This document shows positions 12,243 to 45,985 of a DNA stretch of 64,000 nucleotides, piece by piece. The stretch is taken from assembly GCA_041234785.1 (NCBI GenBank), contig JBEROH010000025.1, forward strand, positions 30,444 to 94,443. The letters are read 5' to 3'. The stretch's first letter is position 1. Each line of letters starts with the position of its first letter. Both the position numbers and the translations under genes were made by a program. The DNA is from Candidatus Actinomarina sp. (GTDB taxonomy: Bacteria; Actinomycetota; Acidimicrobiia; Actinomarinales; Actinomarinaceae). The notes beneath the pieces were generated by a model. It saw only the letters and a program-made list of their open reading frames with translations. It was not told where the DNA came from and ran no database searches.

Positions 12243-12245
12243 AAT

Positions 12246-12860: not shown

Positions 12861-12861
12861 T

Positions 12862-13389: not shown

Positions 13390-13690
13390 GGTAACAACGG
13401 ACTGGTATTTAACGCTTTCTGCAATTTTATTTTCAATTGGCTTTTTTGGAATGATGATAAGAAAAAATGCCTTAATTATGTTTATGTGTATTGAGCTTAT
13501 GTTAAATGCAGTTAATTTAACTTTTATTGCTGCATCCAATCATTTTGGTCAAATAGATGGACAGATTGCAGTTTTTTTTGTACTTGTTGTAGCTGCTGCA
13601 GAAGTTGTTGTAGGGTTAGCAATTATTGTATCAATTTTTAAAAAACAAGTATCCGCATCTGTTGATGTTTTAAATATTTCTAGAGGTTAA
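13382..13690 (+). CDS. nuoK: NADH-quinone oxidoreductase subunit K
   Basis: About 100 aa, 3 TM segments, ND4L-like ([11 protein letters not shown]...[12 protein letters not shown]). ATG 13382 overlaps the nuoJ stop. An alternative ATG at 13358 is possible. Confidence 0.75.
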
Positions 13691-13691
13691 G

Positions 13692-15590
13692 ATGATTAAA
13701 TTTTTTATACTTTTAGTAATTTTTTTACCACTTGTAACATCTTCTATACTGTTTATTAACAAAAGAATATTTAATGAAAAATTTACAAGTTTTGTTACTT
13801 TAAATATTTCTTTGTTGACATTCTTAATTTCAGTTTATATTTTTGTAGTATTTTCATTGAATAATTATGAAGGTTTTGAATTTAAGTTGTTTCAGTGGAT
13901 TAAGCTAATTGATATACAAATAGGTTTTAGCCTTAATGGATTATCGGGAATCATGCTTTTGCTTATTACATCTCTTTCTTTATTAATTCAGTTGTTTTCT
14001 ACGTCGTATATGTCTGAAGACAAAAACTATAATTCATATTTTGTTTTTTTCAATTTTTTTGTCTTCTCAATGTTATTTTTAGTAATGTCTTCAAATTTTT
14101 TAGTAATGTTTATTGGCTGGGAACTAGTTGGATTAAGCTCTTATCTTTTGATATCTTTTTGGTCGGAAAAAACGTCAGCAGTAAAAGCTGGAAATAAAGC
14201 TTTTGTGATTAATAGAATTGGTGATTTTGGATTTTTAATAGGATTAATGTTGATTTTTAATAATTTTAATACTTTTGAATTTAATTTAATTTTTTCACAA
14301 ATTTCTTTGAAGTCAGAAAGTACACTAACTTTAATTGCAATTTTTTTATTGCTTGGAGCATTTGGTAAATCAGCTCAGTTTCCATTGTTTAGTTGGTTAC
14401 CAGATGCTATGGAAGGTCCTACTCCTGCTAGTGCTTTAATTCATGCAGCGACAATGGTCACTGCAGGGGTGTTCATGTTGGTAAGAATTTCCCCTTTGCT
14501 ACAGTATTCTGAAGTTGCAAATCTAATAATAATCTCTATTGGCCTCTTCACGGCATTAATTGCAGCCTTTTCGGCAATTAATCAAAATGATATAAAAAAA
14601 GTTTTAGCTTATTCTACAATTTCCCAACTGGGATTTATGTTTATTGCAATAGGAGCAGGTGCATATGTAGCCGCAATATTTCATCTTGTAACCCACGCAT
14701 TTTTCAAAGCATTACTTTTTCTAGGTGCTGGATCTGTTATTCACGCTATGCACCACGAACAGGATATAACAAAAATGGGAGCTTTAAAAAAGCAAATGCC
14801 TATAACAGCAACAACAATGGGAATAGGTACAATTGCCATCGCCGGCATCCCACCCCTTGCTGGCTTCTGGTCTAAAGACGAAATTCTTGCATCAGTTTTT
14901 TCAAAAGGCGGAGTCTATTATATTTTTTGGGGCCTAGCATTAGCTGCTGCATTTTTAACAGCATTTTATATGGGAAGACATTGGTTGTTGATTTTTCAAA
15001 AAGAAAATAACTTTGATCATACTCATGTAAATGAATCACCAAAAAAAATGTTGATACCATTGATTATATTGAGTGTCTTTTCCATTTTCATCGGATTTAT
15101 TAACACACCTCTTTTTCATGGATTAGAAAAAGTACTTTATCAATCTCTCGAAGAAGTTTATGTAACACATCTACCAGAAGGATTTACATTGATTGCACTT
15201 GCATTAATTTCAATAGGAATTGGATTCTCGGGGTTAATAAGTTCTTACCTTATTTACTCTTTAGCTGTACACAAAAAGTTAGATTTTCAAATAGCAATTA
15301 ACTTTATAACTTTCTTGAAAAAACTATCGTTGAATGTTTTTTACTTAAATAAAATAGGAAATTTTATTTTTGTTGCAAGCCTTAAAAATTTTACTCGTAA
15401 AATTGCTGTTGTTGTAGATGGATTAATTATTGATGGTGCTGTGAATTTAGTTGCAGACACTTTTAATAAGACTTCAAAACTCACTTCATTCTCACAAACT
15501 GGTCAAGTAAGAAATTATGTAATGTATTTTGGTTTGTTTTTAGTTTTATTAATAGGTCTATTTATTGCCACACCATTGGTTTCACCATGA
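13692..15590 (+). CDS. nuoL: NADH-quinone oxidoreductase subunit L (antiporter-like)
   Basis: 632 aa. ND5 motifs (WLPDAMEGPTPASALIHAATMVTAGV). Confidence 0.9.
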   Translation: MIKFFILLVIFLPLVTSSILFINKRIFNEKFTSFVTLNISLLTFLISVYIFVVFSLNNYEGFEFKLFQWIKLIDIQIGFSLNGLSGIMLLLITSLSLLIQLFSTSYMSEDKNYNSYFVFFNFFVFSMLFLVMSSNFLVMFIGWELVGLSSYLLISFWSEKTSAVKAGNKAFVINRIGDFGFLIGLMLIFNNFNTFEFNLIFSQISLKSESTLTLIAIFLLLGAFGKSAQFPLFSWLPDAMEGPTPASALIHAATMVTAGVFMLVRISPLLQYSEVANLIIISIGLFTALIAAFSAINQNDIKKVLAYSTISQLGFMFIAIGAGAYVAAIFHLVTHAFFKALLFLGAGSVIHAMHHEQDITKMGALKKQMPITATTMGIGTIAIAGIPPLAGFWSKDEILASVFSKGGVYYIFWGLALAAAFLTAFYMGRHWLLIFQKENNFDHTHVNESPKKMLIPLIILSVFSIFIGFINTPLFHGLEKVLYQSLEEVYVTHLPEGFTLIALALISIGIGFSGLISSYLIYSLAVHKKLDFQIAINFITFLKKLSLNVFYLNKIGNFIFVASLKNFTRKIAVVVDGLIIDGAVNLVADTFNKTSKLTSFSQTGQVRNYVMYFGLFLVLLIGLFIATPLVSP

Positions 15591-17074
15591 TAGAACTAAT
15601 TTTTTCATTTATTTTTGTACCTTTTTTAGGTTCAATAATTATTTTTCTACTCCCAAAAACTCGTTCTGAATTGTATAGACCAATCTCAATTGCTATCTCT
15701 TTGATCACTCTAACTAATTCAATTTACTTATTATTTAGTGAGTATTCAAAAACGGAGTTTAATATTTTATACAGATTTACATGGATTAAATCCTATGGTT
15801 TAGAAATAAACTTTGGAACATCTGGAATGTCAGCACTACTTATTTTTCTCACAGCTTTGTTAATAGTCTTATCACTATTCTCTCTCAACCAACTTCACGC
15901 AGAAAGCAAAGGTTTTCTCGGTTCATTTCTAGCTTTGCATTTTGCAATCAATGGAGTATTTGTTAGCGGTGATTTAATTTCACTATTTATATTTTTTGAA
16001 GCAATCCTAATTCCAATGTATTTCTTAATGGGAATATGGGGTGGTGAGAACAGAAAATATGCGACAATAAAATTTATAATTTATACCGTATTTGGTTCAA
16101 TTTTTATTTTTATTGGTACAGTTTATGTCGCTGTTATTAGTTATTCATATAATGGCAAGTTAGCTGTCGACTTTGAAACACTTGGAAATTTAAATTTAAC
16201 TTTAACGCAATCTAAAGTTTTATTTTTACTTTTCACTTTTGGTTTTTTAGTAAAAGTCCCAATCTTTCCACTACATACATGGCTTCCAGACGCACATGTA
16301 GAAGCCCCTACTGCAGGAAGCATCATGCTTGCAGGAGTTTTGTTAAAAGTTGGAGCTTTTGGAATACTTAGAGTTTCCATACCTTTTTTTACTGAAGGGT
16401 ATCTTGAATATCGAAGTTATATTGCAATTCTTTCAGTAATTGGGATTATTTATGGCGCTGTTGTAGCAATTGCACAGGAGGATATTAAAAAATTAATTGC
16501 ATATTCTTCTATTAGCCACATGGGATTTGTAATGTTGGGAATCTCAGCAGGTAGTCTACTAAGTTTAGAAGGTGCAATTATTCAAATTTTTAACCATGGA
16601 ATTACAGCTGCAGCATTGTTTATGCTTGTTGGATTTTTATATGATAGAAGACATACAAGAAAAATAAGTGAATTTGGAGGGTTAAAAATAACAATGCCTA
16701 AATATGCCGCAATATTTTTATTTACATCCTTTGCATCGATTGGATTACCAGGGCTTAATGGTTTTGTGGGAGAGTTCATGATATTAATAGGAAGTTACGA
16801 AACTTTTAATCTCCTCTCAACTATTGCTGCTTTAGGTGTAGTTTTAGCAGCTATATATATGCTTTGGGCATATCAAAGAATTTTTACTGGTAGCATTTCT
16901 AAAGAAGAAAACAAGGTATTAAAAGATCTTAACCTGAGAGAGTTAATTTCAATTGTTCCTTTATTATTACTTATGTTGTTAATTGGGGTTTATCCAAAAT
17001 TAATTGAAAGTTTTGTCACCCAAGATGCTTTTGCAATCAATAGTATTATTAAATTTATTATAGGTATGAAATGA
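15587..17074 (+). CDS. nuoM: NADH-quinone oxidoreductase subunit M
   Basis: 495 aa. ND4 motifs (HTWLPDAHVEAPTAGSIMLAGVLLK). Confidence 0.9.
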   Translation: MIELIFSFIFVPFLGSIIIFLLPKTRSELYRPISIAISLITLTNSIYLLFSEYSKTEFNILYRFTWIKSYGLEINFGTSGMSALLIFLTALLIVLSLFSLNQLHAESKGFLGSFLALHFAINGVFVSGDLISLFIFFEAILIPMYFLMGIWGGENRKYATIKFIIYTVFGSIFIFIGTVYVAVISYSYNGKLAVDFETLGNLNLTLTQSKVLFLLFTFGFLVKVPIFPLHTWLPDAHVEAPTAGSIMLAGVLLKVGAFGILRVSIPFFTEGYLEYRSYIAILSVIGIIYGAVVAIAQEDIKKLIAYSSISHMGFVMLGISAGSLLSLEGAIIQIFNHGITAAALFMLVGFLYDRRHTRKISEFGGLKITMPKYAAIFLFTSFASIGLPGLNGFVGEFMILIGSYETFNLLSTIAALGVVLAAIYMLWAYQRIFTGSISKEENKVLKDLNLRELISIVPLLLLMLLIGVYPKLIESFVTQDAFAINSIIKFIIGMK

Positions 17075-18543
17075 CATCAATTTCAGAGTTAATTGGTTTA
17101 AATTTTGTTGTTATTGGTCCCACTTTAACTTTATTAGTGACCACTTTGATTCTTCTTTTTTCTACTATATCGATTAGAACTTCTACTGTTGTAAAAAAAT
17201 ACATTACATTAGTTGGTGTCTTTGCAACTTTATTTGCAATATTTTTAAAATTTGGTTTATTTTTTTCAAATGGTCTATCTTCTTACTTTTCAGAGAAAAT
17301 ATTGCTTGATGAATTTTCTTTGTTTGGAAATTTGTTGATTGGGTTTGTATTGATATTTACTTTCATACCTTTTTGGAAAACTTCAGAAATGTTTTCAAGT
17401 AAAACTACTGAAGCAATTATTTTAATATTGATGTCAGCTTCAGGGTTTCTTTTAATGGTAGATTCCGAAAATTTTATTATGTTATTTATAGGATTAGAAA
17501 TTGGTTCTATTAGTTTGTATGCTTTATCAGGATTAAATAGAGGTGACAAGTTAAGTAACGAGGCTTCACTCAAGTACTTTTTACTAGGATCTCTAGCTTC
17601 CTGCATATTGATTTATGGTGTTGCCCTTTTATATGTTTCGTTATCAATAACAGGTGTTTACGAAACAAGTATTGCAATAAGTTTTATTGGCACAGATAAT
17701 GTTCCCTTAACAACATTAGTTGGACTAATATTTTTGATTGTAGGATTGTTATTTAAGGTTGCAGCCGCCCCATTTCAAGCTTGGGCGCCAGACGTTTACC
17801 AAGGTGCTCCAACAGGATATGTAGGGTATATGGCATCGGTAGCTAAAGTATCCTCCTTCATAGTTTTAGCTCGACTATCAGCTGTTTCATTATCATTAAT
17901 TTTGGATAAATTTGAACTATTCTTTTCTGCCATTATTATCTTGTCAGTAGTTTTGGGCTCATTGTTTGCTTCAAATCAAACTGACCTTAAAAGATTGTTA
18001 GCTTATAGCGGTGTAATACAGTCTGGTTTTATTCTTGCAGGAATCAGTTCAGGCCTTAATGGTATTAGTGCTTCATTATTTTATCTTACGACCTACATAG
18101 TCCAGCTCCTTGGAGTATTTTTTGTGTTCTCATTAATTAGTGGACATATGAGTTCAGATTTCAGTATTGAAAAACTTTCTGGACTTTTTAAAGATAATAA
18201 ATTATTAACTATTTCCTTCTCTATTTTTATGCTTGGTATAGCTGGACTGCCTTTAACAAGTGGTTTTGTGTCAAAATTTATTCTTATAGCAAATCTTTGG
18301 TCGTATGAAAGATATGTTATTGTCGTAATGTTAATGCTCTCTACTGTTGCTGGATTTTATTTTTACCTTAAACCTATTTGGACTGCTTCTATTCAAAAAT
18401 CAGAGATTTTGAAAATTAAAATAAAAATTAGCTTAGTTGAAAAATTAGTATTGCTAATACTTTCCTTTTTAACTATTTTTTTAGGATTATTTCCTAACGG
18501 GTTAATAAACTTAACTCGCTGGGTAATTGAGAATTATTTGTAA
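17071..18543 (+). CDS. nuoN: NADH-quinone oxidoreductase subunit N
   Basis: 490 aa. ND2 motifs (APFQAWAPDVYQGAPT). Last gene of operon 1. Confidence 0.9.
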   Translation: MTSISELIGLNFVVIGPTLTLLVTTLILLFSTISIRTSTVVKKYITLVGVFATLFAIFLKFGLFFSNGLSSYFSEKILLDEFSLFGNLLIGFVLIFTFIPFWKTSEMFSSKTTEAIILILMSASGFLLMVDSENFIMLFIGLEIGSISLYALSGLNRGDKLSNEASLKYFLLGSLASCILIYGVALLYVSLSITGVYETSIAISFIGTDNVPLTTLVGLIFLIVGLLFKVAAAPFQAWAPDVYQGAPTGYVGYMASVAKVSSFIVLARLSAVSLSLILDKFELFFSAIIILSVVLGSLFASNQTDLKRLLAYSGVIQSGFILAGISSGLNGISASLFYLTTYIVQLLGVFFVFSLISGHMSSDFSIEKLSGLFKDNKLLTISFSIFMLGIAGLPLTSGFVSKFILIANLWSYERYVIVVMLMLSTVAGFYFYLKPIWTASIQKSEILKIKIKISLVEKLVLLILSFLTIFLGLFPNGLINLTRWVIENYL

Positions 18544-30832: not shown

Positions 30833-31198
30833 ATGATTTCTTATTTTCAAGATTACGTAACAATAGGAGCGGTCCTAGGTTTTGGCATATTTTTTATGCT
30901 CTTTTTAGTTGGCATTGCTTCAATTTTAAGACCCGATAAACCTTATGCTGAAAAGCTTGAAACTTATGAATGTGGAGTAGACCCAGTTGGAACTGGTTGG
31001 AGTCAAACTTATGTTAGATATTATATTTTTGGTTTACTATTTGTAATTTTTGATGTTGAAGCAGTTTTTATTTTCCCTTGGGCGATTAATTTAGAGAAAC
31101 TTGGATATTTTGGATTAGTTGAGATGTTTATATTTGTATTTATTTTACTGATTGGTCTTCTTTATGCGATTAGAAAGGATGTTCTTAAATGGGAGTAG
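30833..31198 (+). CDS. nuoA2: Complex I subunit A, second (11-subunit) operon
   Basis: 121 aa, 3 TM segments, YECG motif. Confidence 0.85.
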
Positions 31199-31686
31199 TC
31201 GATAAATTTGGATTACCAAAACCTATATCTACTGTATTTAATTGGGCAAGGTCATACTCACTTTGGTATTTTCAGTTTGGATTAGCATGTTGTGCTATTG
31301 AGGTTATGGCAGTTAGTGGACCAAGACATGATTTTATGAGATTAGGCATTATTCCATTACCAGCATCTCCGAGACAGGCTGATTTAATGATAGTTGCTGG
31401 AACTGTAACTGATAAAATGGCACCATCGGTTAAAAGGCTTTATGACCAAATGCCTGAACCAAAATATGTAATTTCAATGGGATCTTGTTCTAATAGCGGA
31501 GGACCGTATTGGGATTCATATTCGGTAACCAAAGGAGTTGATCAATTAATCCCAGTAGATGTTTATGTACCAGGCTGCCCACCAAGACCAGAAGCATTGC
31601 AAGAAGGAATTATACTTCTTCAAAAGAAAATTAGAGGTGAGAACATGAAAGAAAAGTGGGAGCAAAAACAAGTTGAGCCAATTTAA
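31189..31686 (+). CDS. nuoB2: Complex I subunit B, second operon
   Basis: [22 protein letters not shown]2-cluster motifs. Confidence 0.9.
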
Positions 31687-31687
31687 G

Positions 31688-32260
31688 ATGGAAGAATTTT
31701 TAGAGTCAATAAAAAATAACTTTAAAGAAGTAACTTTTGATTTCCAGACTATAAGTATCAAAGTTGATTCTAATCAGTGGGTAGAAACCCATAAGTTGCT
31801 AAAAGAATCATTTCAACTAAATTTTTTTTCATGGCTTTCCGCAATTGATTGGGATAATGATGTTTCTGTTGGTGATGCTCCAAAAGAACAAGTGACTCCA
31901 AGTTTTGAAATTATCTCTTGTCTGTCTGACACTACGTCCAATAGACTATTAACTATTTCTACTCTTGTTCCAAAAACTGAGCCTACCGTCCCAACTCTTA
32001 CAGACATATTTGCTGGAGCAAATTGGCATGAGAGAGAAGCTTTCGAGATGTTTGGAATAACATTTGAAGGACATCCGAATTTAGAAAAATTGTATTTACC
32101 TGATGGATATGAAGGAAATCCAATGCTTAAATCATTTGAACTAATTAGTCGTGAAGTTAAACCTTGGCCGGGGGACGTAGACGTTGAAGGTATGCCAGAA
32201 GGCTCAGAAGACGATGAAAGCGCCGATGCTACAGAAAAATTAGAAAATGATAATAGTTAA
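31688..32260 (+). CDS. nuoC2: Complex I subunit C (30 kDa), second operon, with acidic C-terminal tail
   Basis: HEREAFEMFGI motif. ATG at 31688 follows the nuoB2 stop. The ORF track's TTG at 31673 overlaps nuoB2. C-terminus is DVDVEGMPEGSEDDESADATEKLENDNS. Confidence 0.8.
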   Translation: MEEFLESIKNNFKEVTFDFQTISIKVDSNQWVETHKLLKESFQLNFFSWLSAIDWDNDVSVGDAPKEQVTPSFEIISCLSDTTSNRLLTISTLVPKTEPTVPTLTDIFAGANWHEREAFEMFGITFEGHPNLEKLYLPDGYEGNPMLKSFELISREVKPWPGDVDVEGMPEGSEDDESADATEKLENDNS

Positions 32261-33458
32261 TATGGTTAATATTTTAGATCCTCAAGATATGAGAAATTAT
32301 TCAGAAGCTTCAGTTTCAATTGAAATTGAAACTGAAGACATGACTTTAAACATTGGCCCCCAACATCCATCTACACATGGGGTTCTAAGACTTGTTGCTA
32401 AGGTTGATGGAGAAAAAGTTTACAATGTAGAACCCGTATTAGGTTATATGCATAGAGGATATGAAAAACTTGCTGAAGTTAGAACCTATCCCCAAATTAC
32501 AACTTTAGTTAATAGAATTGACTGGGTTTCCGGATTCTCAAATGAAATACCTTTTATTGCTGGAGCTGAAAGGTTGATGGAAATAGAAGTGCCAGAAAGA
32601 GCAAAACATATAAGATTAATTCTTACTGAAATGGCAAGAATTTGCTCCCACTTTGTATTTAACGGTGCCTATCCACTAGAAATAGGAGCTTTAACTCCAA
32701 TTTTTTATGCCATGGAAGACAGGGAAAGGGTTCTTGATTTAATAGAGTCTGTTACAGGAGGAAGATTCCACCCAAACTTTAACAGAATTGGTGGCGTTAA
32801 ACCTGCTGCAGGAGCTGGACCTACAAGTAAAAAAAATATACAAGATTTACCTGCTGGTTTCTATAGAGACACAAAACTTGCTATGGAAAAAGTGATTGAA
32901 GCTGCAGACAAATTTCAAAATTTAATTGGTGGGAATGAAGTTTTTCAAAAAAGAACTAAAAAAGTAGGAATTCTGTCTAGAGAAACAGCCGAAGCATTTG
33001 GTGTTTCTGGACCTATACTTCGAGCATCTGGTGTTAAATATGATTTAAGAACATATACTGACTACTTACCATACGAAAAGTTTGATTTCGATATCCCTAT
33101 AGGGGAAAACGGTGATTGTTTTGACAGGTGGGATGTGAGAACGAAAGAAATGGTTGAGTCTGCAAAAATAGTACTCCAGGCAATTGATTCAATGCCATCT
33201 GGTCCGTTGCAAGCTAAAGTCCCTAAAGTAATAAAAGTTCCTCCTGGAAGAACATATGTAAGAGCTGAAAACCCTAAAGGTGAAATGGGATACTATATTG
33301 TCTCAGAGGGTGGCTTAGGGCCTTATAGACTTAAGGTAAGAACTGCCTCATTTAGTAATGTTTCAATCCTACCCGTAATGCTAGAGGGTGCTTTGCTCCC
33401 TGATTTAATAGCAATCATGGGAAGTCTTGATTTCGTGTTAGGAGATGTTGACCGATGA
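32247..33458 (+). CDS. nuoD2: Complex I subunit D (49 kDa), second operon
   Basis: 403 aa. GPQHPSTHGVLRL and a terminal DR. Carries Arg in MHRGYEK at the position equivalent to NDUFS2 Arg85. Alternative start ATG at 32262. Confidence 0.85.
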   Translation: MIIVNMVNILDPQDMRNYSEASVSIEIETEDMTLNIGPQHPSTHGVLRLVAKVDGEKVYNVEPVLGYMHRGYEKLAEVRTYPQITTLVNRIDWVSGFSNEIPFIAGAERLMEIEVPERAKHIRLILTEMARICSHFVFNGAYPLEIGALTPIFYAMEDRERVLDLIESVTGGRFHPNFNRIGGVKPAAGAGPTSKKNIQDLPAGFYRDTKLAMEKVIEAADKFQNLIGGNEVFQKRTKKVGILSRETAEAFGVSGPILRASGVKYDLRTYTDYLPYEKFDFDIPIGENGDCFDRWDVRTKEMVESAKIVLQAIDSMPSGPLQAKVPKVIKVPPGRTYVRAENPKGEMGYYIVSEGGLGPYRLKVRTASFSNVSILPVMLEGALLPDLIAIMGSLDFVLGDVDR

Positions 33459-34426
33459 GTGAAGTTTTAATTAAAGTTGGCTGGCTTGCTCTCGCCGCTC
33501 TTAATGGTGCTGTGATTTTCACAATTATGGACGTTAAAGGAGCTTCTTGGATGCAAAGAAGACCAGGACCACTTCACGTTGGATTAAGAGGGTTTATTTT
33601 TCCTTTAGCAGAGATTATTAAGTTTATCCAAAAAGAAGACATAATTCCAACAGAAGTTGATAGACCAGTATTTAAGTGGGCTCCCGCATATGTTGTGGTT
33701 TCTGCTGTATCGCTTTTTGCGATAGTTCCTTTGAGCCCCTCTTTGGTGATAGTTGATCTTGAATTAGGTGTATTTTTTGCCCTAGCTATTAGCTCACTTT
33801 CAACAATTGGCGTTCTTACCGCAGGTTGGTCTTCAGCAAATAAGTATTCTTTAATGGGAGGCTTAAGAGCTGCAGGTCAGCTAATCGCTTATGAGCTTCC
33901 ATTAATCCTTGCTGTTGTTGGTGTTGTTATTCAGGCTGAAACTATGTCATTAGTCGGCATTGTTGAAAAACAAATTGAGTGGGGAGTTCCGTTTATATTT
34001 AGTGGACAAATAATTGCTTTCTTAATATTTATGGTTGCAGCAACAGCAGAAATGATGAGAGTACCCTTTGATATGCCTATAGGTGAATCTGAACTAGTTA
34101 GTGGTTTCATGACGGAGTATTCAGGAATTAGGTTTTTAATATTTTATATATCTGAATATATGAATATGTTTATTATGTGTGCTATCGCATCTACTTTGTT
34201 TTTAGGTGGTTACCACATACCATTACTTCCAGTAGAATGGGTGAACTTTTATGGTCCAATTTCACTTTTAACAAAAACATTTATATTAGGATTTATACTT
34301 GTAGCAGTTAGATGGTCTTTTCCTAGATTTAGAGAAGATCAATTACAAAACTTAGCATGGAAGTTTCTTATTCCTGTTTCTTTGTTGAATATTTTAATCA
34401 CAGCTGTTATGAAAGTAGGGTTCTAG
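33455..34426 (+). CDS. nuoH2: Complex I subunit H, second operon
   Basis: 323 aa. [24 protein letters not shown] and [14 protein letters not shown] motifs. ATGA overlap with nuoD2. Confidence 0.9.
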
Positions 34427-34467
34427 TGAAACGATTTAAAATAAAAATACCAGGATTTTTAATAGGA

Positions 34468-34911
34468 ATGAAAATTGTTGTCTTCAACATGTTTAAGACT
34501 TTGTCCCCATTTCACTCCAACCCAAATGTAAACTACCCTTTTGAAAAAGAAAAAGTTGCTCCAAGAGCTAGGGGTGTTATTGCCTTAGATCAAGAAGCTT
34601 GTACAAGCTGTATGCTTTGTGCACGCCAATGCCCAGATTGGTGTATCTATATTGAAGGCCATAAGGAACTACAACCACCTTCTAAACCTGGTGGAAGGCA
34701 AAGAAGTAGAGCTGTACTGGATAGATTTGATATTGACTATGCACTTTGCATGTACTGTGGAATATGTGTTGAAGTTTGTCCATTTGATGCTCTGTTTTGG
34801 TCCCCTGAGTATGAGTACTCAGAATTTAATATGGGCGATATGTTACATAACAAAGAAAGGCTTGATGATTGGTTGAAAACAGTCCCAGACCCTGAAGGGC
34901 TAGAAAGCTAA
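34468..34911 (+). CDS. nuoI2: Complex I subunit I (2x[4Fe-4S]), second operon; a divergent NdhI-like type
   Basis: [12 protein letters not shown] and [12 protein letters not shown] motifs. Start uncertain: candidates are GTG 34426 (overlapping the nuoH2 stop), ATG 34468 and ATG 34489. The ORF track's 34357 start overlaps nuoH2 by 70 nt. Confidence 0.7.
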
Positions 34912-34914
34912 TTA

Positions 34915-35433
34915 ATGGAAGTTTACGAAATTTTTACCTACTTTGTGCTTTTGTTATTAATTTCAACTGCTGTGAGAGTTGTAACCACCTCTAATGTTAT
35001 TCATGCTGCTATTTCACTTGTTTTTACACTTGCATTGACAGCAACATTGTTTTTAATATTATCTGCAGAGTTTGTTGCTCTAGTACTTGTTCTTGTATAC
35101 ATTGGAGCAGTAATTGTCTTGTTTTTGTTTGGAATTATGATAACAAGAGCTCCTTTGGGTAAAAATGCCGAACTTGATAATGATAAAAATAAAAAACTTG
35201 GGGCTATTATTGCTGGCTCAATTTTTATTCTATTTTCGTATATTTTAATTAATGGATTTGAAGGCGAGATTGCAATAAGTCAAGGGTCTTCCACTCAACT
35301 TCTTGGTGAGATCTTATTCACACGTTTTGTATTTCCATTTGAAATTGTATCTTTTGTACTTTTAGCAGCTTTAATTGGTGGCATTACTTTAGCCAGAAAA
35401 GACGAGTCTTTAATAAAAGAGGATCAAATATGA
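34915..35433 (+). CDS. nuoJ2: Complex I subunit J, second operon
   Basis: 172 aa hydrophobic ND6-like protein. Confidence 0.8.
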   Translation: MEVYEIFTYFVLLLLISTAVRVVTTSNVIHAAISLVFTLALTATLFLILSAEFVALVLVLVYIGAVIVLFLFGIMITRAPLGKNAELDNDKNKKLGAIIAGSIFILFSYILINGFEGEIAISQGSSTQLLGEILFTRFVFPFEIVSFVLLAALIGGITLARKDESLIKEDQI

Positions 35434-35735
35434 TAGTGCAACCAGTTTTAATTGTTGCAGCTGCTCTTTTTTCACTTGGGATTTATGGAATTTTAGTCAG
35501 AAGAAATGCTGTTATGGTTTTATTGTCTATTGAACTTATTTTAAATGCAGTCAATATAAATTTTATTCTTTTCGACACAATGCTTGCTGATTCTATGATG
35601 CAGGGTCAAATATTTACAATTTTTATTATTACTATAGCCGCAGCTGAGGTTGGAATTGGTCTAGCTATTGTTCTTATGCTTTTTAGAAATAGAAAAACTG
35701 CAAACATTAACGAATTTGATTTGATGAAATGGTAA
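35430..35735 (+). CDS. nuoK2: Complex I subunit K, second operon
   Basis: 101 aa, 3 TM segments (LNAVNINFIL...AAAEVGIGLAIV). Confidence 0.85.
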   Translation: MIVQPVLIVAAALFSLGIYGILVRRNAVMVLLSIELILNAVNINFILFDTMLADSMMQGQIFTIFIITIAAAEVGIGLAIVLMLFRNRKTANINEFDLMKW

Positions 35736-37744
35736 TTTTTAATATAAATTTTTTTGCTGAAGGTAAACCTGAGTATACAGATGGGGGACTATTAGCAGAG
35801 TTTACATGGCTTCTTGTGGTCTTACCTTTTATTGCAGCTTTACTTATTACTGTTGCTGGAAAATATTTACCATTTAAAGGATCTGAAATAGCATTGATAA
35901 CTATCTGTTTTATATTTTTTTATAGCATAGCTTTAATGTATTTACATATTACTGAAGGAATAGCTAGTGAATTTTTTATTAATGTAGGAAATATTGGCCA
36001 ATTTGAAATTGAGTTTGGGTGGGTTGTTGATGGTCTTTCAATCATGATGTATTTTGTGGTTGGAACTGTTGCAACTTTAGTTTTTGTTTATGCAGTAAAT
36101 TACATGGAAGGCGAAATTAGGTATACATTTTTCTTTACTTCGTTAACCCTATTTGTAGGGAGCATGTTAGTCCTTGTTTCTTCTCCTACATTAATCCAGA
36201 TACTTATTGGTTGGGAACTGGTTGGAGTGTGTTCGTACTTGTTGATTGGTCATTATTGGGAGAAAAAAGAAAATTCTTCAGCAGCAATTAAAGCATTTAT
36301 TACTAATAAAGTTGCAGATGTTGGATTAATGATTGGAATTATTATCTTAGCTTTAAATACAGGAACTCTAAGAATTTCAGAAATTCTTTATCAAGCTACT
36401 CATGATTATAAAGATATTAAAAATGTTGCTTTTGTTGCTGGGGTACTTTTGTTTATTGGAGCTATGGGTAAAAGCGCACAATTCCCTCTTCATGTATGGC
36501 TACCAGACGCAATGGCAGGTCCGACACCAGTTTCGGCATTAATGCATGCTGCAACCATGGTTACAGCGGGTGTATATTTACTTGCCAGGATGTTTCCTTT
36601 TTATGAAGCCATTGCCAAAGATGCCCTATATATAGTTATGGTTTTTGGAGTTATTACTTTAATATCCGCAGGACTTATTGCTGTCGTTCAAGATGACTTA
36701 AAAAAGGTTTTAGCATATTCAACAGTCAGTCAATTAGGTTATATGGTTGCTGCAATAGGTTCTGGAGCTTATACAGCTGCTCTTTTTCATCTTTGGACCC
36801 ATGCATTTTTTAAAGCATTATTATTTTTGGCTGCTGGTTCTGTAATACACTCTGTTCATAGCAATAGTATGTTACAGATGGGGGGTTTGCGTAAAGTGAT
36901 GCCAAAAACATTTTATACATTTATTATTGGCACGGTAGCGTTAGCAGGACTGCCACCTTTTGCAGGGTTTTTTTCAAAAGATGAAATTCTAGCTTCTCTC
37001 AACCATGAGGGTGAAACAGCATTTTTTGCAATAGCAGTACTTGGTGCTTTTATTACAGCTTTTTACATGACAAGAGCAGTTTCTCTGACATTTCTTGGTG
37101 ACTATAGAGGCCATGGACATCCACACGAATCACATGCTCTAATGACTACTCCTTTACTAATTCTATCTGCATTAGCTATTACATCAGGCTGGGTTAATAT
37201 TCCCGGAGTTTATACAGGGTTTACTAAATGGGTTACAACAAGAAGAACCCCAATTTTAGAGTATCATCCAGAAAGTTTCGATATGTTTGCATTAAGTTTG
37301 GGTTTAACAGCTGGAATATTAGGTATTGCAGCAGGTTACTACTTGTATCAATTGCAAGGTAGTGCTGAAACAGGTGATGACAAAATAAAAATACAACCCA
37401 TTTGGAATTTATTAGAAAATAAATATTATATTGATGAATTTTATTTTAAATTTATCATTGATCCAATTAAATTAACAATCTCCAAGATTATTGATCGTTT
37501 TAACACAAATGTATTAGATAGATTTGTTAATAGTTTTGGGATAGTAGCTTCAATATTTGGAAGTTTTGTATATAAAAGTTTAGATCAAAATGGTATTGAT
37601 AAGTTTTTAAACTTTTCTTCAAGCAGTACTGATAATTTTGGAGGAAGAGTTAAATTATTACAAACGGGTAGAACTCAGCAGTATTTAATGTTGTTTTTAG
37701 GTGGTGTAATAGCAATTAGTTTATTAATTTTATTTATTATATAG
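35729..37744 (+). CDS. nuoL2: Complex I subunit L (antiporter-like with long horizontal helix), second operon
   Basis: 671 aa. WLPDAMAGPTPVSALMHAATMVTAGV motif. Confidence 0.9.
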   Translation: MVIFNINFFAEGKPEYTDGGLLAEFTWLLVVLPFIAALLITVAGKYLPFKGSEIALITICFIFFYSIALMYLHITEGIASEFFINVGNIGQFEIEFGWVVDGLSIMMYFVVGTVATLVFVYAVNYMEGEIRYTFFFTSLTLFVGSMLVLVSSPTLIQILIGWELVGVCSYLLIGHYWEKKENSSAAIKAFITNKVADVGLMIGIIILALNTGTLRISEILYQATHDYKDIKNVAFVAGVLLFIGAMGKSAQFPLHVWLPDAMAGPTPVSALMHAATMVTAGVYLLARMFPFYEAIAKDALYIVMVFGVITLISAGLIAVVQDDLKKVLAYSTVSQLGYMVAAIGSGAYTAALFHLWTHAFFKALLFLAAGSVIHSVHSNSMLQMGGLRKVMPKTFYTFIIGTVALAGLPPFAGFFSKDEILASLNHEGETAFFAIAVLGAFITAFYMTRAVSLTFLGDYRGHGHPHESHALMTTPLLILSALAITSGWVNIPGVYTGFTKWVTTRRTPILEYHPESFDMFALSLGLTAGILGIAAGYYLYQLQGSAETGDDKIKIQPIWNLLENKYYIDEFYFKFIIDPIKLTISKIIDRFNTNVLDRFVNSFGIVASIFGSFVYKSLDQNGIDKFLNFSSSSTDNFGGRVKLLQTGRTQQYLMLFLGGVIAISLLILFII

Positions 37745-37752
37745 GAGGAAAA

Positions 37753-39321
37753 GTGGAATTATTATCTAACGGTTTAGGGTTGTCAGCGGTTGTATTTTTA
37801 CCGTTGGTGAGTGCATTAATAGTAGTTCTCATTCCTAAAAGTAAGGAAGGACTTATTAAGTGGTTTACACTAGCATCTTCTTTAGTGACTTTTGGTTTGA
37901 GTATTTTGTTGCTATTACTTTTTGATTTTTCAAATGCACATATTCTTCAACTAGGAAACAAAATTTCTTGGATTAAAAGTATAAATGCCAATTATGAAAT
38001 TGGAATTGATGGAATATCTCTTCCGTTATTAGTACTTTCAACATTTATTACTGTTTTAGCTGTCATATATTCAATAGAACATTTACCAGAGCCTAAAAGT
38101 CCAAAAGGTTTCATGGCACTTATTCTTGTTCTAGAAACAGGTATGAATGGTACATTTGTAGCATTAGATTTAATTTTATTTTTTGTATTTTTTGAAATAG
38201 TTTTACTTCCTATGTATTTTATGATTGGAATTTGGGGTGATAAAACTATTAGAACTGTTGCGGGGTTTAAAAATCAAATTGAAACTCGACTTTATGCAAG
38301 TATAAAGTTCTTTGTATTTACTCTTTTTGGATCTGCGTTCATGCTTTTAGGATTTCTTGGCTTGTACTACAGGGGAAATAAAACCTTTAGTATTCCAGAA
38401 TTAATTGAATTAGGTAGCTCAGGAGCTTTTACTGGAACTTTTGCAACCTTAGTGTTTTCTGTTTTATTTTTAGGTTTTGCTGTAAAAGTCCCCATGTGGC
38501 CGCTCCACACATGGTTACCTGATGCACATACTGCAGCTCCTACAGTGGGTTCAGTTTTATTAGCTGCAATACTATTAAAACTAGGTTCTTATGGATTTAT
38601 TAGAATCGCAATTCCTATATTGCCTGATCAAGCAAAAGCTTGGGCACCAGCAATCGCAATACTTTCAGCAATCGGTATTATTTATGGTTCTCTAGCTTGC
38701 TTAGCCCAAACGGATCTTAAAAGACTTATTGCTTTTTCTTCCGTTGGACATATGGGTTTTGTAATGTTGGGTATAGCAACACTGACCCCAATTGGAATTA
38801 ATGCAGCGATTATAGGAATGGTTGCCCATGGTGTTATTACAGGTCTCTTGTTTTTTATTTCTGGATCAATGGCTCATACGTATCACACTCGAGATATGGA
38901 AAGACTAGGGGGGAATATGAAATTACTTCCCAAAACTGGTGCTTTGTTAGGTTTTACTGCAATGGCTTCCCTTGGCCTTCCTGGACTAGCAGGATTTTGG
39001 GGAGAATTTATGGCATTACTTGGAGCTTTTAATCCTTTGCCAGGTTTAAACATTACTATTTTTAGATCATCTATGGTTGCAGGTGCTATTGGTACCGTTC
39101 TAACAGCAGGATATCTATTGTGGATGCTACAAAGAGTAAATTTAGGCGAACCTTCAGATGAGTGGAATAGCGAAGAATTACATGACGCCGATAAATACGA
39201 ACTTGCTGCGTGGATACCATTAGTCATCCTAACGGTTTTAATTGGAGTATTTCCGAAATTGATTTTTGGTGCAACAAATGATGCAGTAGTTAGCTTACTT
39301 TCCAAAGCATTCGGAGGTTAA
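37753..39321 (+). CDS. nuoM2: Complex I subunit M, second operon
   Basis: 522 aa. HTWLPDAHTAAPTVGSVLLAAILLK motif. GTG start 10 nt after RBS AGGAGG. Confidence 0.9.
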   Translation: MELLSNGLGLSAVVFLPLVSALIVVLIPKSKEGLIKWFTLASSLVTFGLSILLLLLFDFSNAHILQLGNKISWIKSINANYEIGIDGISLPLLVLSTFITVLAVIYSIEHLPEPKSPKGFMALILVLETGMNGTFVALDLILFFVFFEIVLLPMYFMIGIWGDKTIRTVAGFKNQIETRLYASIKFFVFTLFGSAFMLLGFLGLYYRGNKTFSIPELIELGSSGAFTGTFATLVFSVLFLGFAVKVPMWPLHTWLPDAHTAAPTVGSVLLAAILLKLGSYGFIRIAIPILPDQAKAWAPAIAILSAIGIIYGSLACLAQTDLKRLIAFSSVGHMGFVMLGIATLTPIGINAAIIGMVAHGVITGLLFFISGSMAHTYHTRDMERLGGNMKLLPKTGALLGFTAMASLGLPGLAGFWGEFMALLGAFNPLPGLNITIFRSSMVAGAIGTVLTAGYLLWMLQRVNLGEPSDEWNSEELHDADKYELAAWIPLVILTVLIGVFPKLIFGATNDAVVSLLSKAFGG

Positions 39322-39389
39322 AAATTAATATTAATTATTTTGCAATTTCTACTGAATTAATAGTTATCTTTACTATTGTTGGTACGCTT

Positions 39390-40802
39390 TTGTTAGATTT
39401 GATATTAACAAGAAAATCTAAATATTATATAGCAGTGTTTGCATTGTTAGGAACTTTATTCTCTTTAGTTCCTCTTTTTATTCAATGGTCTAACTATACA
39501 GAGCCAATATATGCATTCAGTAATAGTTATACAGTTGATAAATTTTCAATTATTTTAAAAGGATTGTTTATTCTTACTACGTATCTAACTTTTTTAATGT
39601 CAATCAACTTCATTGAAAGCGATAAGTACTATCAAGGAGAGTACTATTATCTTCTTTTAAGCTCTTTGTTAGGTGCACTAGTTGTCAGCTCATCAAGAGA
39701 CATGCTAACTATTTTTATTGGAATTGAATTAGCCTCTACTCCAATGTTTTTATTGTCAGGTTGGAAAAAAGGGGACAGAAAATCTAACGAAGGCTCAATT
39801 AAATTTTTCTTATTAGGAGTACTTTCTGCATCCTTAATTCTTTATGGATTTTCCCTGTTATATGGGCTAACTGGTCAAATAATTTTTTCTAATATATCAA
39901 CTTATATTGTTGCAAACTCTTTATCCCAATCACCCGTATTGCTTCTTAGTGTCATTTTAGTAATTTCAGGTTTAGGATTTAAAATATCTATTGTACCATT
40001 TCACTCATGGGCACCTGACACTTATGAAGGTGCGCCACTACCTGTAGCAGCGTATCTCTCTGTAAGTTCTAAAGCAACTGGATTTGTAGCTTTGATTATA
40101 TTATTAACAACAGTATTTCAATCTTCAGGAAAGAGCTGGGGAATAATTTTAGCAATTATATCTGGAGTAACAATGACAGTGGGCAATTTAATTGCACTAC
40201 AGCAATCTCATCCAGTAAGACTACTAGCCTATTCTTCTATTTCACAAGCTGGATTTATTTTGGCACCTCTAGCTTTGGCTGGTGTAACTGGGAATTATCA
40301 AGAAGGAGTCTTTGCCAGTGTTACATATATCATTATTTATACCTTTATGAATTTAGGTGCTTTTTTATGTGTTCATTTATTTGGTAATTATGCTGGATCT
40401 TCTAATTTTTATGATTGGGGTGGGGTTGCAAAGAAAGCACCCGTTGTTGGTACTTTTACAACGATTTTTTTCTTTTCCCTTGCTGGCATACCCCCACTAG
40501 GGGGTTGGTTTGCAAAATTTGTAGTATTCAGAAGTTTATTGAGTACAGGAGAAGCTATAGGACTAGCTTTAGGAATTGTCGGTGCAATTAATGCAGTTAT
40601 AGCTTTAGTTTATTATGCAAGAATTTCTAAAGTGATTTGGATGGATGAAGAAACGCAAAACTATTCTGAAAAAATATTTTACTTTGATAAACCACTTAAG
40701 GTAGTTACTTTTTTTACCGTTTTAATAACTTTTCTTGCTGGTTTCTTTCCAGGAATTTTCACCTTTCTTGGTGAGGCCTCTTCTATCTTTTTTGGCAATT
40801 AA
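39390..40802 (+). CDS. nuoN2: Complex I subunit N, second operon (5' boundary uncertain)
   Basis: 470 aa from TTG 39390. FHSWAPDTYEGAPLPVAAYLS motif. The reading frame stays open and hydrophobic for about 22 codons upstream with no ATG/GTG/TTG. Confidence 0.8.
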   Translation: MLDLILTRKSKYYIAVFALLGTLFSLVPLFIQWSNYTEPIYAFSNSYTVDKFSIILKGLFILTTYLTFLMSINFIESDKYYQGEYYYLLLSSLLGALVVSSSRDMLTIFIGIELASTPMFLLSGWKKGDRKSNEGSIKFFLLGVLSASLILYGFSLLYGLTGQIIFSNISTYIVANSLSQSPVLLLSVILVISGLGFKISIVPFHSWAPDTYEGAPLPVAAYLSVSSKATGFVALIILLTTVFQSSGKSWGIILAIISGVTMTVGNLIALQQSHPVRLLAYSSISQAGFILAPLALAGVTGNYQEGVFASVTYIIIYTFMNLGAFLCVHLFGNYAGSSNFYDWGGVAKKAPVVGTFTTIFFFSLAGIPPLGGWFAKFVVFRSLLSTGEAIGLALGIVGAINAVIALVYYARISKVIWMDEETQNYSEKIFYFDKPLKVVTFFTVLITFLAGFFPGIFTFLGEASSIFFGN

Positions 40803-40805
40803 AGT

Positions 40806-41825
40806 TTGTCAAAAAAATCAATTGTTCAATATTTTCAAGAAAAATATGAATCTGATTATTTATACTTCGATGACTTTATGGAAGAGTCATTGTATTCAAA
40901 TTTTGGATTTTTCAATACAGAAAAAATTCGATCTAATAAAGAAGGAGATTTCCTAACTTCACCTGAAATTTCAAATTTTTTCGGTAAATTTATTTCAAAT
41001 TGGATATTAAGAAATAATCTAACAAAAAATATAATAGAAATTGGCTCTGGTTCTGGAAAGCTAATTAATCAAATCAATCTTGAAAATATAGTTGCAATTG
41101 AAAAATCTTCTACAGCAATGTTTGAGTTGAACAAACAGGGTATTCGCACCTTTAAAGATTTAAATTCTCTTCCTTTTACTGAATCTGATTTGGTATTTGG
41201 AAACGAAGTTTTAGACAATATACCATGCTCTATAGGAATATTTAAAAACGGAGAATGGAATGAAAAGGTTGTAAAAATTTTTAATAATGAGTTTAGCTAC
41301 GACATTAAACCAATAAGGCAAAATGAGCTAAATTGGATTAATTCTAATAAGATACAACCAAACAAAAACCAACAAGTTGAAATTCAAAGAAATATAGACT
41401 CCTTTCTACTAAATTTGCACGCCAAATTAAATCCTAAGAAAATATTATTTATAGATTATGGATATATACAAGAAGAAAGGCATTTAAGAAAATATGATTC
41501 GTTATTGAGAACTTACAAAAACCACCATCTTTCTGTAGACCCAATTGAAAGCCCAGGACAAGTTGATATAACTTATGATGTTAATTTTTCTGCAGTTGAA
41601 AGATATTTAATATCATTAGATTATAAAGTTGAAATCATTCCTCAAAAAGAATTTTTATATCAGAATGGATTTGATGAAGTATATTCAAAACTTTACAGTC
41701 AATATATTTCAAGTGATGGAATAGAACAATTAAAAATAAATAATTTATTAACAGGTTTAATGGCATTAGTAGATTCAAATGGATTAGGGGGCTTCTATTG
41801 TCTGCTAGCAGAAAAATATAACTGA
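40806..41825 (+). CDS. SAM-dependent methyltransferase of the MidA/NDUFAF7 family (DUF185)
   Basis: 339 aa. Family hallmarks GDFLTSPEISNFFGKFISNW (cf. human NDUFAF7 GDFITSPEISQIFGE), glycine-rich SAM motif IIEIGSGSGKL, GNEVLDNIP, and DITYDVNFS (cf. ADVDFS). TTG start 4 nt after nuoN2 stop. Confidence 0.8.
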   Translation: MSKKSIVQYFQEKYESDYLYFDDFMEESLYSNFGFFNTEKIRSNKEGDFLTSPEISNFFGKFISNWILRNNLTKNIIEIGSGSGKLINQINLENIVAIEKSSTAMFELNKQGIRTFKDLNSLPFTESDLVFGNEVLDNIPCSIGIFKNGEWNEKVVKIFNNEFSYDIKPIRQNELNWINSNKIQPNKNQQVEIQRNIDSFLLNLHAKLNPKKILFIDYGYIQEERHLRKYDSLLRTYKNHHLSVDPIESPGQVDITYDVNFSAVERYLISLDYKVEIIPQKEFLYQNGFDEVYSKLYSQYISSDGIEQLKINNLLTGLMALVDSNGLGGFYCLLAEKYN

Positions 41826-41844
41826 AATAATTTATAATAAAGCT

Positions 41845-42681
41845 ATGAACTTTTTTAAAACTACAGTTTTATTAACTGTAATGACACTAATAGTTATGTT
41901 CACTGCTTCAGCTTTAGGGTATGACTTAGTATCAGCTTTATTTTTTGCAATGATATTCAACTTCGTTATGTACTTCTTCTCAGGTAACTTAGCTATACGT
42001 TCTACCAGAGCACAAAAAATTCAATCAGGGCAATTTAATGAGGTCGTAGAAATCATCACATATTTAGTTAATAAAGAAAAGATGCCTATGCCGGAACTAT
42101 ACATAATAGAAAGTGATCAACCAAATGCTTTTGCTACTGGACGTAATCCCAAAAATTCTAAAATTGCAGTAACCACTGGTATCTTAAGACTGTTAAATAG
42201 AGATGAGCTAGAAGGAGTCTTGGCACATGAGCTTTCACATATTAAAAATAGAGATATATTGGTATCTAGTATTGCTGCGATGTTAGCTGCTGCAATTTCC
42301 TTTATGTCAAGAATGGCATTCTGGGGTGGTGGAAATAGAGATAGAAATACACATCCAGCATTTATACTAATAGCATTTATAGCTGCACCAATTGCCTCAA
42401 TAATTATTCGAATGGCAATATCTAGAACAAGAGAATTTGGTGCAGATTTAACTGGTTCAGATATTTCTGGAAACCCATTAGCGCTTGCATCAGCTCTGGA
42501 AAAAATTGAGAAGTATTCAAAAATTCCAATGAAAGTTAATCCTGCCGTAAGTCAATTATTTATTTCAGACCCTTTAAAAGCTTTTTCAGGACGGAGCATA
42601 ACAAAACTTTTTTCAACCCATCCACCTACATCTGAAAGAGTTAGAAGGTTAAGACAGAGGCAAAGTGGTATTCGGTTTTAA
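41845..42681 (+). CDS. htpX: Zinc metalloprotease HtpX (M48)
   Basis: 278 aa. N-terminal TM segments, HEXXH motif AHELSHIKNRD, PNAFATG motif. Confidence 0.85.
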   Translation: MNFFKTTVLLTVMTLIVMFTASALGYDLVSALFFAMIFNFVMYFFSGNLAIRSTRAQKIQSGQFNEVVEIITYLVNKEKMPMPELYIIESDQPNAFATGRNPKNSKIAVTTGILRLLNRDELEGVLAHELSHIKNRDILVSSIAAMLAAAISFMSRMAFWGGGNRDRNTHPAFILIAFIAAPIASIIIRMAISRTREFGADLTGSDISGNPLALASALEKIEKYSKIPMKVNPAVSQLFISDPLKAFSGRSITKLFSTHPPTSERVRRLRQRQSGIRF

Positions 42682-43015
42682 CAGTACTCCCATTGTGGAG
42701 TCAGAAAAAGTTGAAAATTTAATAGAGACCGGATCAATTCTTATTGACGTGCGAGAAGATGACGAATGGATAGCTGGGCACCATTCTAAAGCAGTGCACA
42801 TTGCAATGGGTACCATTTCTGACAAGCTTGATTTTTTTGATAAAAAAAATAATTACATTGTTGTTTGTAGATCCGGCGCTAGGTCTGCAAAAGTAACAAA
42901 GTTTTTAATAAATGAAGGATTTGATGCATCAAATTTAGATGGAGGAATGAAAAGTTTTTCACAAATCTCAGATAAAATAGTAAATTCAGAAGGACAAAAA
43001 GGTCAAATAATCTAG
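42665..43015 (+). CDS. Rhodanese-domain sulfurtransferase
   Basis: 116 aa. Active-site loop VVCRSGARS (CRxGxR). GTG start overlapping the htpX 3' end. Confidence 0.8.
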   Translation: MVFGFNSTPIVESEKVENLIETGSILIDVREDDEWIAGHHSKAVHIAMGTISDKLDFFDKKNNYIVVCRSGARSAKVTKFLINEGFDASNLDGGMKSFSQISDKIVNSEGQKGQII

Positions 43016-43024
43016 AATCAATAT

Positions 43025-43981
43025 GTGATAATTTGTATTGGAAATGCATTAGTCGATTCGCTTCAAACTGTAGATGAAAAAACCCTTCAATCTCTAGAGT
43101 TAAATAAAGCTAGGATGACCTTAATCGATAAAAATAGGTCAAATTTTTTACTTGAAAATATGGAATCTCCAATTTATGAAGCTGGAGGATCAGCAGCTAA
43201 TACTGCTTACTGGATATCTAAACTTGGTGGAAATGCTGGATTTATAGGAAAAATTTCTGATGACACATTGGGACAACAATTTAAAAAAAGTTTAAAAGAT
43301 TCTGGGCTAAGAGATTTGACCGTATTTGAATCAGAAAATTATCAGACTGGCTTATGTGCTATTTTTATAACTCCAGACGGAGAGAGAACAATGAATACAT
43401 ATCTTGGTGCTGGAGCTTTTTTATCAAAAAATGATATTGATGAAGAAAGTATTAAATCTTGCGAAATTTTATATATGGAAGGTTACTTATGGGACAAGCC
43501 AATTAGCAAAGAAGCATTTCTTTATGCTTCTAAATTAAATAAAAACTCAGGTGGGAAAAATGCGATTACTTTATCCGATGTATTTTGTGTGGAAGCTCAT
43601 CGTGAAAGTTTTGTTGATTTAATTTCAACAAGTATAGATTATATTTTTTGTAATGAAGAAGAAATCTATTCTCTTGCCAAAAGAAGTGATATAGAGAGCT
43701 CTTTAGACTTTATAAGTACAAATTTTCCAAATGTGGAGCAAGTAATTTGTACTCTTGGTCCAAAAGGTGCAGTAGTTTTAAATGATAATCAAAAATATTT
43801 TATCAATGCTTCGGAAACTAATGTAATTGATAAAACTGGGGCCGGAGATTTTTTTGCTGCCGGTTATTTGTATGGCTTGCAAAAAAATTTAGATATATTT
43901 GAATCTGCAAAAATAGCAAATAAGAGCGCTGCTTTAGTAATTAGTGAAATTGGTGTTAGGCCAAACTCAAATTTAATTTAA
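43025..43981 (+). CDS. pfkB-family carbohydrate/nucleoside kinase (ribokinase/adenosine-kinase-like)
   Basis: 318 aa. N-terminal GNALVD and C-terminal DKTGAGDFFAAGYLYG motifs of the ribokinase superfamily. Confidence 0.8.
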   Translation: MIICIGNALVDSLQTVDEKTLQSLELNKARMTLIDKNRSNFLLENMESPIYEAGGSAANTAYWISKLGGNAGFIGKISDDTLGQQFKKSLKDSGLRDLTVFESENYQTGLCAIFITPDGERTMNTYLGAGAFLSKNDIDEESIKSCEILYMEGYLWDKPISKEAFLYASKLNKNSGGKNAITLSDVFCVEAHRESFVDLISTSIDYIFCNEEEIYSLAKRSDIESSLDFISTNFPNVEQVICTLGPKGAVVLNDNQKYFINASETNVIDKTGAGDFFAAGYLYGLQKNLDIFESAKIANKSAALVISEIGVRPNSNLI

Positions 43982-45887: not shown

Positions 45888-45892
45888 CTTTG

Positions 45893-45965: not shown

Positions 45966-45985
45966 CGAAGACTCAAAAGTCTTAT

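Follow-up and report, generated by a model that had tools for sequence, protein, structure and literature searches.

A MidA/NDUFAF7-family gene adjoining the 11-subunit complex I operon of Candidatus Actinomarina, and the NuoD arginine it may modify

The stretch of Candidatus Actinomarina DNA analyzed here (64,000 nucleotides, 32% GC; referred to as the window) carries two operons for complex I, and the one lacking the genes of the NADH-oxidizing N module is followed directly by a gene of the MidA/NDUFAF7 family. This raises the question of whether the product of that gene modifies complex I and, if so, which of the two isozymes could serve as its substrate. Symmetric dimethylation of the arginine equivalent to Arg85 of NDUFS2 has been found when complex I of cattle, humans, Pichia, and Paracoccus denitrificans was analyzed by mass spectrometry (PMC3750175), dimethyl-Arg65 of Paracoccus Nqo4 has been modelled in a 2.3 Å structure (PMC11522691), and the enzyme responsible in human cells is NDUFAF7 (PMC3829151). 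Escherichia coli keeps the arginine, but its dimethylation was not found (PMC3750175); thus, the arginine alone does not imply methylation. The function of bacterial and other prokaryotic MidA proteins has so far been inferred only in silico (PMC12455994, PMC9006661).

Two complex I operons and a MidA-family gene

The features of the window to which the text refers are as follows.

4304..18543, + strand: nuo1 operon, 14 genes nuoA-N including nuoEFG (ORF list)
4708..5169, + strand: nuoB1, 153 aa; Arg71 codon at 4918-4920
5576..6952, + strand: nuoD1, 458 aa; GYLHTGMEK, Thr113 codon at 5912-5914
23992-25050, 25111-26664, and 26669-27694: SBP, permease, and ATPase of an ABC transporter 5' of heliorhodopsin
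27946-28749, + strand: heliorhodopsin (Pfam PF18761, E 1.3e-88)
28821-29627 and 29668-30753, - strand: DUF4349 and phosphodiesterase genes, between heliorhodopsin and nuoA2
30833..40802, + strand: nuo2 operon, nuoA-B-C-D-H-I-J-K-L-M-N, without the N-module genes nuoEFG (ORF list; A, B, C, D, and N also by Pfam)
31189..31686, + strand: nuoB2, 165 aa; Thr72 codon at 31402-31404
32247..33458, + strand: nuoD2, 403 aa; GYMHRGYEK, Arg70 codon at 32454-32456
40806..41825, + strand: midA, MidA/NDUFAF7-family (PF02636, COG1565) SAM-dependent methyltransferase, 339 aa, TTG start (Pfam, fold, motifs)
41845..42681, + strand: HtpX-like M48 zinc metalloprotease, 19 nt 3' of midA (Pfam PF01435)
42665..43015, + strand: single-domain rhodanese (Pfam PF00581), syntenic in all Actinomarinales loci
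43025..43981, + strand: PfkB-family kinase, with which the co-directional block ends (Pfam PF00294)

The end of nuoD2 (33458) overlaps the start of nuoH (33455), with no E, F, or G gene between them, and the same 11-gene order without EFG is present in relatives, including loci L004, L005, and L007. The HtpX-like product matched the HtpX models of NCBIfam below their cut-offs.

The product of midA was established as a member of the MidA/NDUFAF7 family, as a first-pass annotation of the window had claimed from the hallmark motifs encoded after nuoN2. A search against Pfam PF02636 (Methyltransf_28) gave a score of 95.9 bits (cut-off, 23.3; E 3.4e-27) over profile positions 21 to 237 of 249, above the curated threshold; NCBIfam holds no model for the family. 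All three of the hallmarks are present, namely, DFLTSPEIS (aa 48-56), the SAM motif GSGSG (aa 80-84), and YDVNF (aa 257-261), and among the in-frame starts of midA the TTG alone retains the family-conserved N-terminal FDxFMExxLY. When 20 diverse members were compared, 22 of 22 family-invariant alignment columns were found in the window MidA, the invariant residues including G80, G82, G84, D48-F49-x-T51, N133-E134-x-x-D137-x-x-P140, D217-Y218, P250, and D254. By sequence, matches in the PDB were 4f3n, 1zkd, and 5ztz (Dictyostelium MidA), three family members of solved structure. The AlphaFold2 model, for which a 20-sequence alignment was the input, had a pLDDT of 92.8 and a pTM of 0.91. Using Foldseek, TM(query) values of 0.85, 0.81, and 0.77 were obtained for 4g67, Dictyostelium MidA (5ztz), and 1zkd, respectively, with superposition on 4g67 and 5ztz spanning the whole length, while other methyltransferase folds scored below 0.5. 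The intact SAM motif and the full set of family-invariant residues argue for an active enzyme, and the window MidA is likely to be catalytically competent.

Three nucleotides (agt) separate the nuoN2 stop codon (TAA, 40800-40802) from the midA TTG at 40806. The first-pass annotation had placed this start correctly, 4 nt past the stop and on the same strand, but its use of the spacing as evidence of coupling did not hold up, as gaps are equally tight across the window: the median same-strand gap is 1.5 nt and 64% are at most 5 nt, making the 3-nt spacer uninformative. This is in line with the description of Actinomarinales in PMC7771536 as streamlined, with a median intergenic distance of 2 bp. 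A promoter and terminator scan of positions 29500 to 46500 was uninformative, its counts being at or below shuffle expectation; it detected no terminator in the nuoN2-midA gap or 3' of midA.

Although the first-pass annotation suggested that this operonic arrangement was undescribed, the gene order was published in 2021 in a preprint entitled [quoted passage not shown] (bioRxiv 10.1101/2021.02.01.429150). The preprint lists, for Ca. Actinomarina, afuABC, heliorhodopsin, the 11-subunit nuoABCDHIJKLMN, NDUFAF7 (K18164/PF02636), htpX, pspE (rhodanese), and adenosine kinase; it terms NDUFAF7, htpX, and pspE accessory components required for complex assembly and function and also remarks on the neighboring 14-subunit operon. 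Two nuo clusters of Actinomarinales are likewise described in PMC7771536. In the preprint, heliorhodopsin and nuo2 are suggested to form one transcription unit; in the window, two minus-strand genes intervene, and thus the two do not lie in one unit.

Further downstream, an in-frame TGA (56454-56456) divides rpoC into two ORFs, 54015-56456 and 56457-57929. Pfam places Rpb1 domains 1 to 4 in the former ORF and domain 5 in the latter, and the TGA sits exactly at the conserved Gly of the RpoC motif RQLA-G-MRGL (DNA, ...caa tta gct TGA atg aga gga...). Possible causes are an error of sequencing or assembly (GGA to TGA), an artifactual pseudogene from a single-cell or metagenome-assembled genome, and a stop that is recoded or read through.

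The NuoD target residue and its NuoB counterpart

The human NDUFS2 segment ending in GLLHRGTEK is 100% identical to PDB 5xtb_Q, and with numbering by the mature 430-aa chain its arginine is residue 85. In a MAFFT alignment anchored on the invariant GPQHP..HGVLRL block, NuoD2 R70, NuoD1 T113, and human R85 share one ungapped column, bearing out the first-pass reading that NuoD2 (GYMHRGYEK) keeps the target arginine whereas NuoD1 (GYLHTGMEK) has threonine. The arginine is invariant among the NuoD2 orthologs of related loci, of which 31 of 31 read GYMHRG[YK]EK.

Thermus Nqo4 (Thr64) and Mycobacterium smegmatis NuoD read HTG, like NuoD1, and Thr64 of Thermus Nqo4 was named as the ortholog of Arg85 by Rhein et al. 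(2013). According to Hameedi et al. (2021; PMC8042128), Arg83 of Thermus Nqo6 (NuoB) spatially replaces the missing NDUFS2 arginine, and Arg-type enzymes carry threonine at this NuoB position. NuoB1 R71 aligns without gaps to Thermus Nqo6 R83 (offset +12 to 2fug_6), while NuoB2 has the mitochondrial-type Thr72, the reciprocal of NuoB1 Arg71. The nuo2 operon therefore pairs NuoD HRGxEK (R70) with NuoB AGT..KMAP (T72), and the nuo1 operon pairs NuoD HTGxEK (T113) with NuoB AGR..KMAP (R71). As this reciprocal switch in NuoB matches the published structural account (PMC8042128), the Arg/Thr difference in NuoD represents a known structural alternative and not noise. Judged by these residues, nuo1 is classed as a complete Thermus/Mycobacterium-type Q module and nuo2 as a complete mitochondrial/Paracoccus-type one. 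With threonine in NuoD1 and arginine in NuoD2, a MidA acting on the Arg85 equivalent could act only on the 11-subunit enzyme.

Other differences between the paralogs were observed away from this site. The N terminus encoded by nuoD1 (5576-5800, + strand) is an extension of approximately 70 residues that is rich in Lys, Asn, and Glu and absent from NuoD2, and the best match to Thermus Nqo4 begins only at chain residue 25. Relative to NuoD1, NuoD2 has a 13-residue insertion (PAAGAGPTSKKNI) and is without approximately 25 residues near the C-terminal third. NuoB1, the Thermus protein, and PSST of mitochondria have the sequence (V/E)VFRASPRQ at the position of residues 54 to 63 of NuoB2 (gene at 31189-31686, + strand), and in NuoB2 the first Arg of the FRASPRQ segment is missing; this segment includes the hydroxylated Arg of bovine PSST (PMC3750175).

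Conservation of the nuoN2-midA linkage

The window MidA has many close relatives (711 database matches), and across a 50%-clustered library its identity drops fast, from 43% to approximately 30%. A scan of a genome collection with an alignment yielded 80 loci, and the window proteins (the query set including nuoE1, nuoF1, and nuoG1) were mapped by tblastn onto 86 loci with 10-kb flanks; these loci are phylogenetically related, and the linkage counts given below are not independent events.

In the 31 Actinomarinales-type loci (MidA identity, 44 to 59%), nuoN2 and midA are adjacent in all 29 that have enough upstream sequence, and the genes for HtpX, rhodanese, and PfkB lie 3' of midA in every one. 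However, the whole neighborhood is collinear down to rplK/rplA/rpoB in Actinomarinales, and so the adjacency there is not independent evidence. A further 55 loci came from other Acidimicrobiia (MidA identity of approximately 30%), 37 of them with at least 8 kb of upstream sequence. Among these 37, nuoN2 was found upstream of midA within 10 kb and on the same strand in 17 and directly adjacent in 7, while 20 had no nuo gene within 10 kb of midA. All midA-linked operons run directly from D to H, without EFG, and NuoD has the arginine in 31 of 31. Of 46 non-Actinomarinales loci, 33 have an HtpX gene 3' of midA at a distance of no more than 10 kb, so that linkage to midA is at least as good for HtpX as for nuoN2.

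The genes located between nuoN2 and midA elsewhere in Acidimicrobiia were considered as candidates for complex I-related functions and rejected, as from their sequences they look unrelated (MurI-like, PIN, IlvC-like, GlgB-like, and membrane proteins). Three MidA homologs from three sampled lineages outside Acidimicrobiia had no nuo neighbors and were found in a cytochrome-c7 neighborhood, a gammaproteobacterial-type folB/surA/lptD context, and a Bacillaceae comG region; linkage to nuo is not a general property of the MidA family. Taken together, the counts (29/29 in Actinomarinales-type loci; 17/37 within 10 kb and 7/37 directly adjacent elsewhere) and the inserted genes identify the nuoN2-midA linkage as an Acidimicrobiia-wide ancestral arrangement, far above chance and partly eroded. 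The first-pass expectation that the adjacency would be conserved in relatives thus held for Actinomarinales-type loci and gave way to erosion in the rest of the class.

Two atypical arrangements were encountered in the survey. In some high-GC relatives (P0137 and P0140), a MobA-like nucleotidyltransferase (PF12804) is fused to the MidA domain, which was considered as a hint of another function and set aside: at the 64% GC locus L089 the genes run nuo2-type J..N, xdhC, and then the MobA::MidA fusion (7001-8611), which sits 3' of the nuo2-type operon and of two xdhC genes (molybdenum-cofactor insertion). A fusion with a neighboring gene is the more likely explanation. At two loci of Acidimicrobiia where midA has no nuo2 operon nearby (L036, 3811-7238; L047, 3514-6931) there are NuoF-like (approximately 42% identity to NuoF1) and NuoG-like genes 2 to 5 kb 5' of midA; these may be part of a soluble NAD-linked dehydrogenase or hydrogenase module.

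Candidate function and comparison with known systems

Family membership, fold, gene order with its conservation, and the residue states of the two isozymes were observed in this analysis. Membership of PF02636, the split at the Arg85 column, and the conserved adjacency, three checks named by the first-pass annotation, all came out in its favor and make it reasonable to propose an arginine-methylation step that could concern only the 11-subunit enzyme. The substrate, type of methylation, and role in assembly that we infer for the window MidA are as follows. The gene at 40806-41825 would encode a MidA/NDUFAF7-type SAM-dependent protein arginine methyltransferase, whose substrate would be Arg70 of NuoD2, which belongs to the Q module of the N-module-less complex I of the preceding operon. 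The reaction would be a symmetric dimethylation, as the analogies of mitochondrial NDUFAF7 and of dimethyl-Arg65 in Paracoccus Nqo4 suggest. Arg70 is predicted to lie beside cluster N2 at the NuoD/NuoB interface, and NuoD2 would be methylated before or during its joining to NuoB2. This step would not be open to the cell's 14-subunit enzyme, which is of the Thermus type, with threonine in NuoD1 and a compensating arginine in NuoB1. We consider dimethylation of NuoD2 Arg70 by the window MidA during assembly of the 11-subunit enzyme to be the probable function, if only by a modest degree.

The main rival to this function is inherited synteny with a different substrate, for example, another protein, in which an ancestral block of nuo2, midA, and htpX has been passively retained, most fully in the streamlined and syntenic Actinomarinales. 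Such retention would account for the collinearity through rplK/rplA/rpoB that deprives the Actinomarinales adjacency of independence, for the tight packing of the window, where 64% of gene pairs on one strand lie at most 5 nt apart, and for the loss of adjacency, with unrelated insertions, in most other Acidimicrobiia; family members of other lineages, moreover, adjoin folB, lactamase_B, or comG-region genes. It is nevertheless rather unlikely, as nuoN2 lies within 10 kb on the same strand in 17 of 37 loci at approximately 30% MidA identity, compared with less than 1% expected for a random pair in a 2- to 4-Mb genome (the counts being phylogenetically nonindependent), and as experiments have identified only one substrate for the family, precisely the residue that is retained in NuoD2 and missing from NuoD1.

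The protein could also be a complex I biogenesis factor whose main role is something other than methylating Arg70, acting with HtpX and rhodanese either as a NuoD2-binding chaperone or by modifying another residue or subunit. HtpX proteases serve membrane-protein quality control and rhodaneses the sulfur supply for Fe-S clusters. These are general housekeeping functions, and the intact SAM motif and family-invariant residues argue for catalysis, so this explanation appears improbable, even though the midA-htpX-rhodanese block is present in all Actinomarinales loci, htpX follows midA in many other Acidimicrobiia, and the preprint groups NDUFAF7, htpX, and pspE as accessory components (bioRxiv 10.1101/2021.02.01.429150). 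Methylation of nucleic acid instead of protein, tentatively proposed for Wolbachia MidA, is very improbable here: the low-level m4C/m6A signals seen in E. coli expressing Wolbachia MidA were called preliminary by the authors, and the sites were few (166) and without sequence specificity (PMC12455994). The family fold and the characterized members are those of protein arginine methyltransferases, and the neighborhood in the window is respiratory, without restriction or DNA-related genes.

If dimethylation of NuoD2 Arg70 is correct, complex I arginine methylation would no longer be confined to alphaproteobacteria and mitochondria but would include Actinobacteria and enzymes without an N module. 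A dimethylarginine beside cluster N2 could serve assembly or tune redox potential, and one small genome with two isozymes, one combining the arginine with a linked MidA and the other having the Thermus-type Thr/Arg swap without need of MidA, offers a clean comparative system; E. coli, which is without the modification, is a possible heterologous host for NuoD2 with or without MidA. It is conceivable, although here we are doubtful, that in Acidimicrobiia the "ancestral-type" 11-subunit complex I has an ancestral accessory step in which the NuoD arginine is methylated by MidA, a step operon encoded and kept as long as the Q module is of the Arg-in-NuoD type. Were this so, NDUFS2-type arginine methylation would not be purely proteobacterial in origin but would exist beyond the alphaproteobacteria and might predate them, and the Actinomarina isozymes would form a natural pair, methyl-Arg versus Thr/Arg switch, for the tuning of cluster N2.

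The kind of system, a MidA/NDUFAF7 enzyme acting on a NuoD arginine, is already known. The first-pass annotation had suggested a bacterial complex I arginine-methylation step; symmetric dimethyl-Arg65 in Nqo4 of Paracoccus denitrificans demonstrates that the modification step was already known in bacteria (PMC3750175, PMC11522691). The Paracoccus enzyme differs in being alphaproteobacterial, with 14 core subunits and one isozyme type, and thus without the isozyme contrast of Actinomarina; operon linkage of the Paracoccus MidA homolog is not mentioned in those two papers. The preprint on heliorhodopsins and PMC7771536 deal with this taxon and this gene order, with annotation by KEGG/Pfam only, and the NuoD Arg/Thr asymmetry, the NuoB switch, and the distribution of the linkage across Acidimicrobiia are absent from the passages that a term search located. 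In the other papers searched, neither the asymmetry nor the switch came up. The isozyme-selective Arg/Thr logic with its NuoB counterpart and the quantified linkage distribution across Acidimicrobiia appear to be new, a modest advance; with the organism uncultured and the gene order published, what is added is the argument from individual residues and the counts of linkage across the class.

The exact Nqo4-Thr64 and Nqo6-Arg83 arrangement of Thermus thermophilus and M. smegmatis is present in nuo1 of the window, but in Actinomarina the Thr-type enzyme shares its genome with an Arg-type isozyme. The NDUFAF7/MidA proteins of human and Dictyostelium share with the window MidA the Pfam family, the two-domain fold, the SAM motif, and the invariant residues, although identity to Dictyostelium MidA is only approximately 20% over the structural alignment and the window protein, at 339 aa, is shorter than their approximately 400 aa. 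Unlike these eukaryotic counterparts, the window gene lies in an actinobacterium and adjoins the operon of its presumed substrate, and its predicted partner is an 11-subunit complex without the NADH-oxidizing module.
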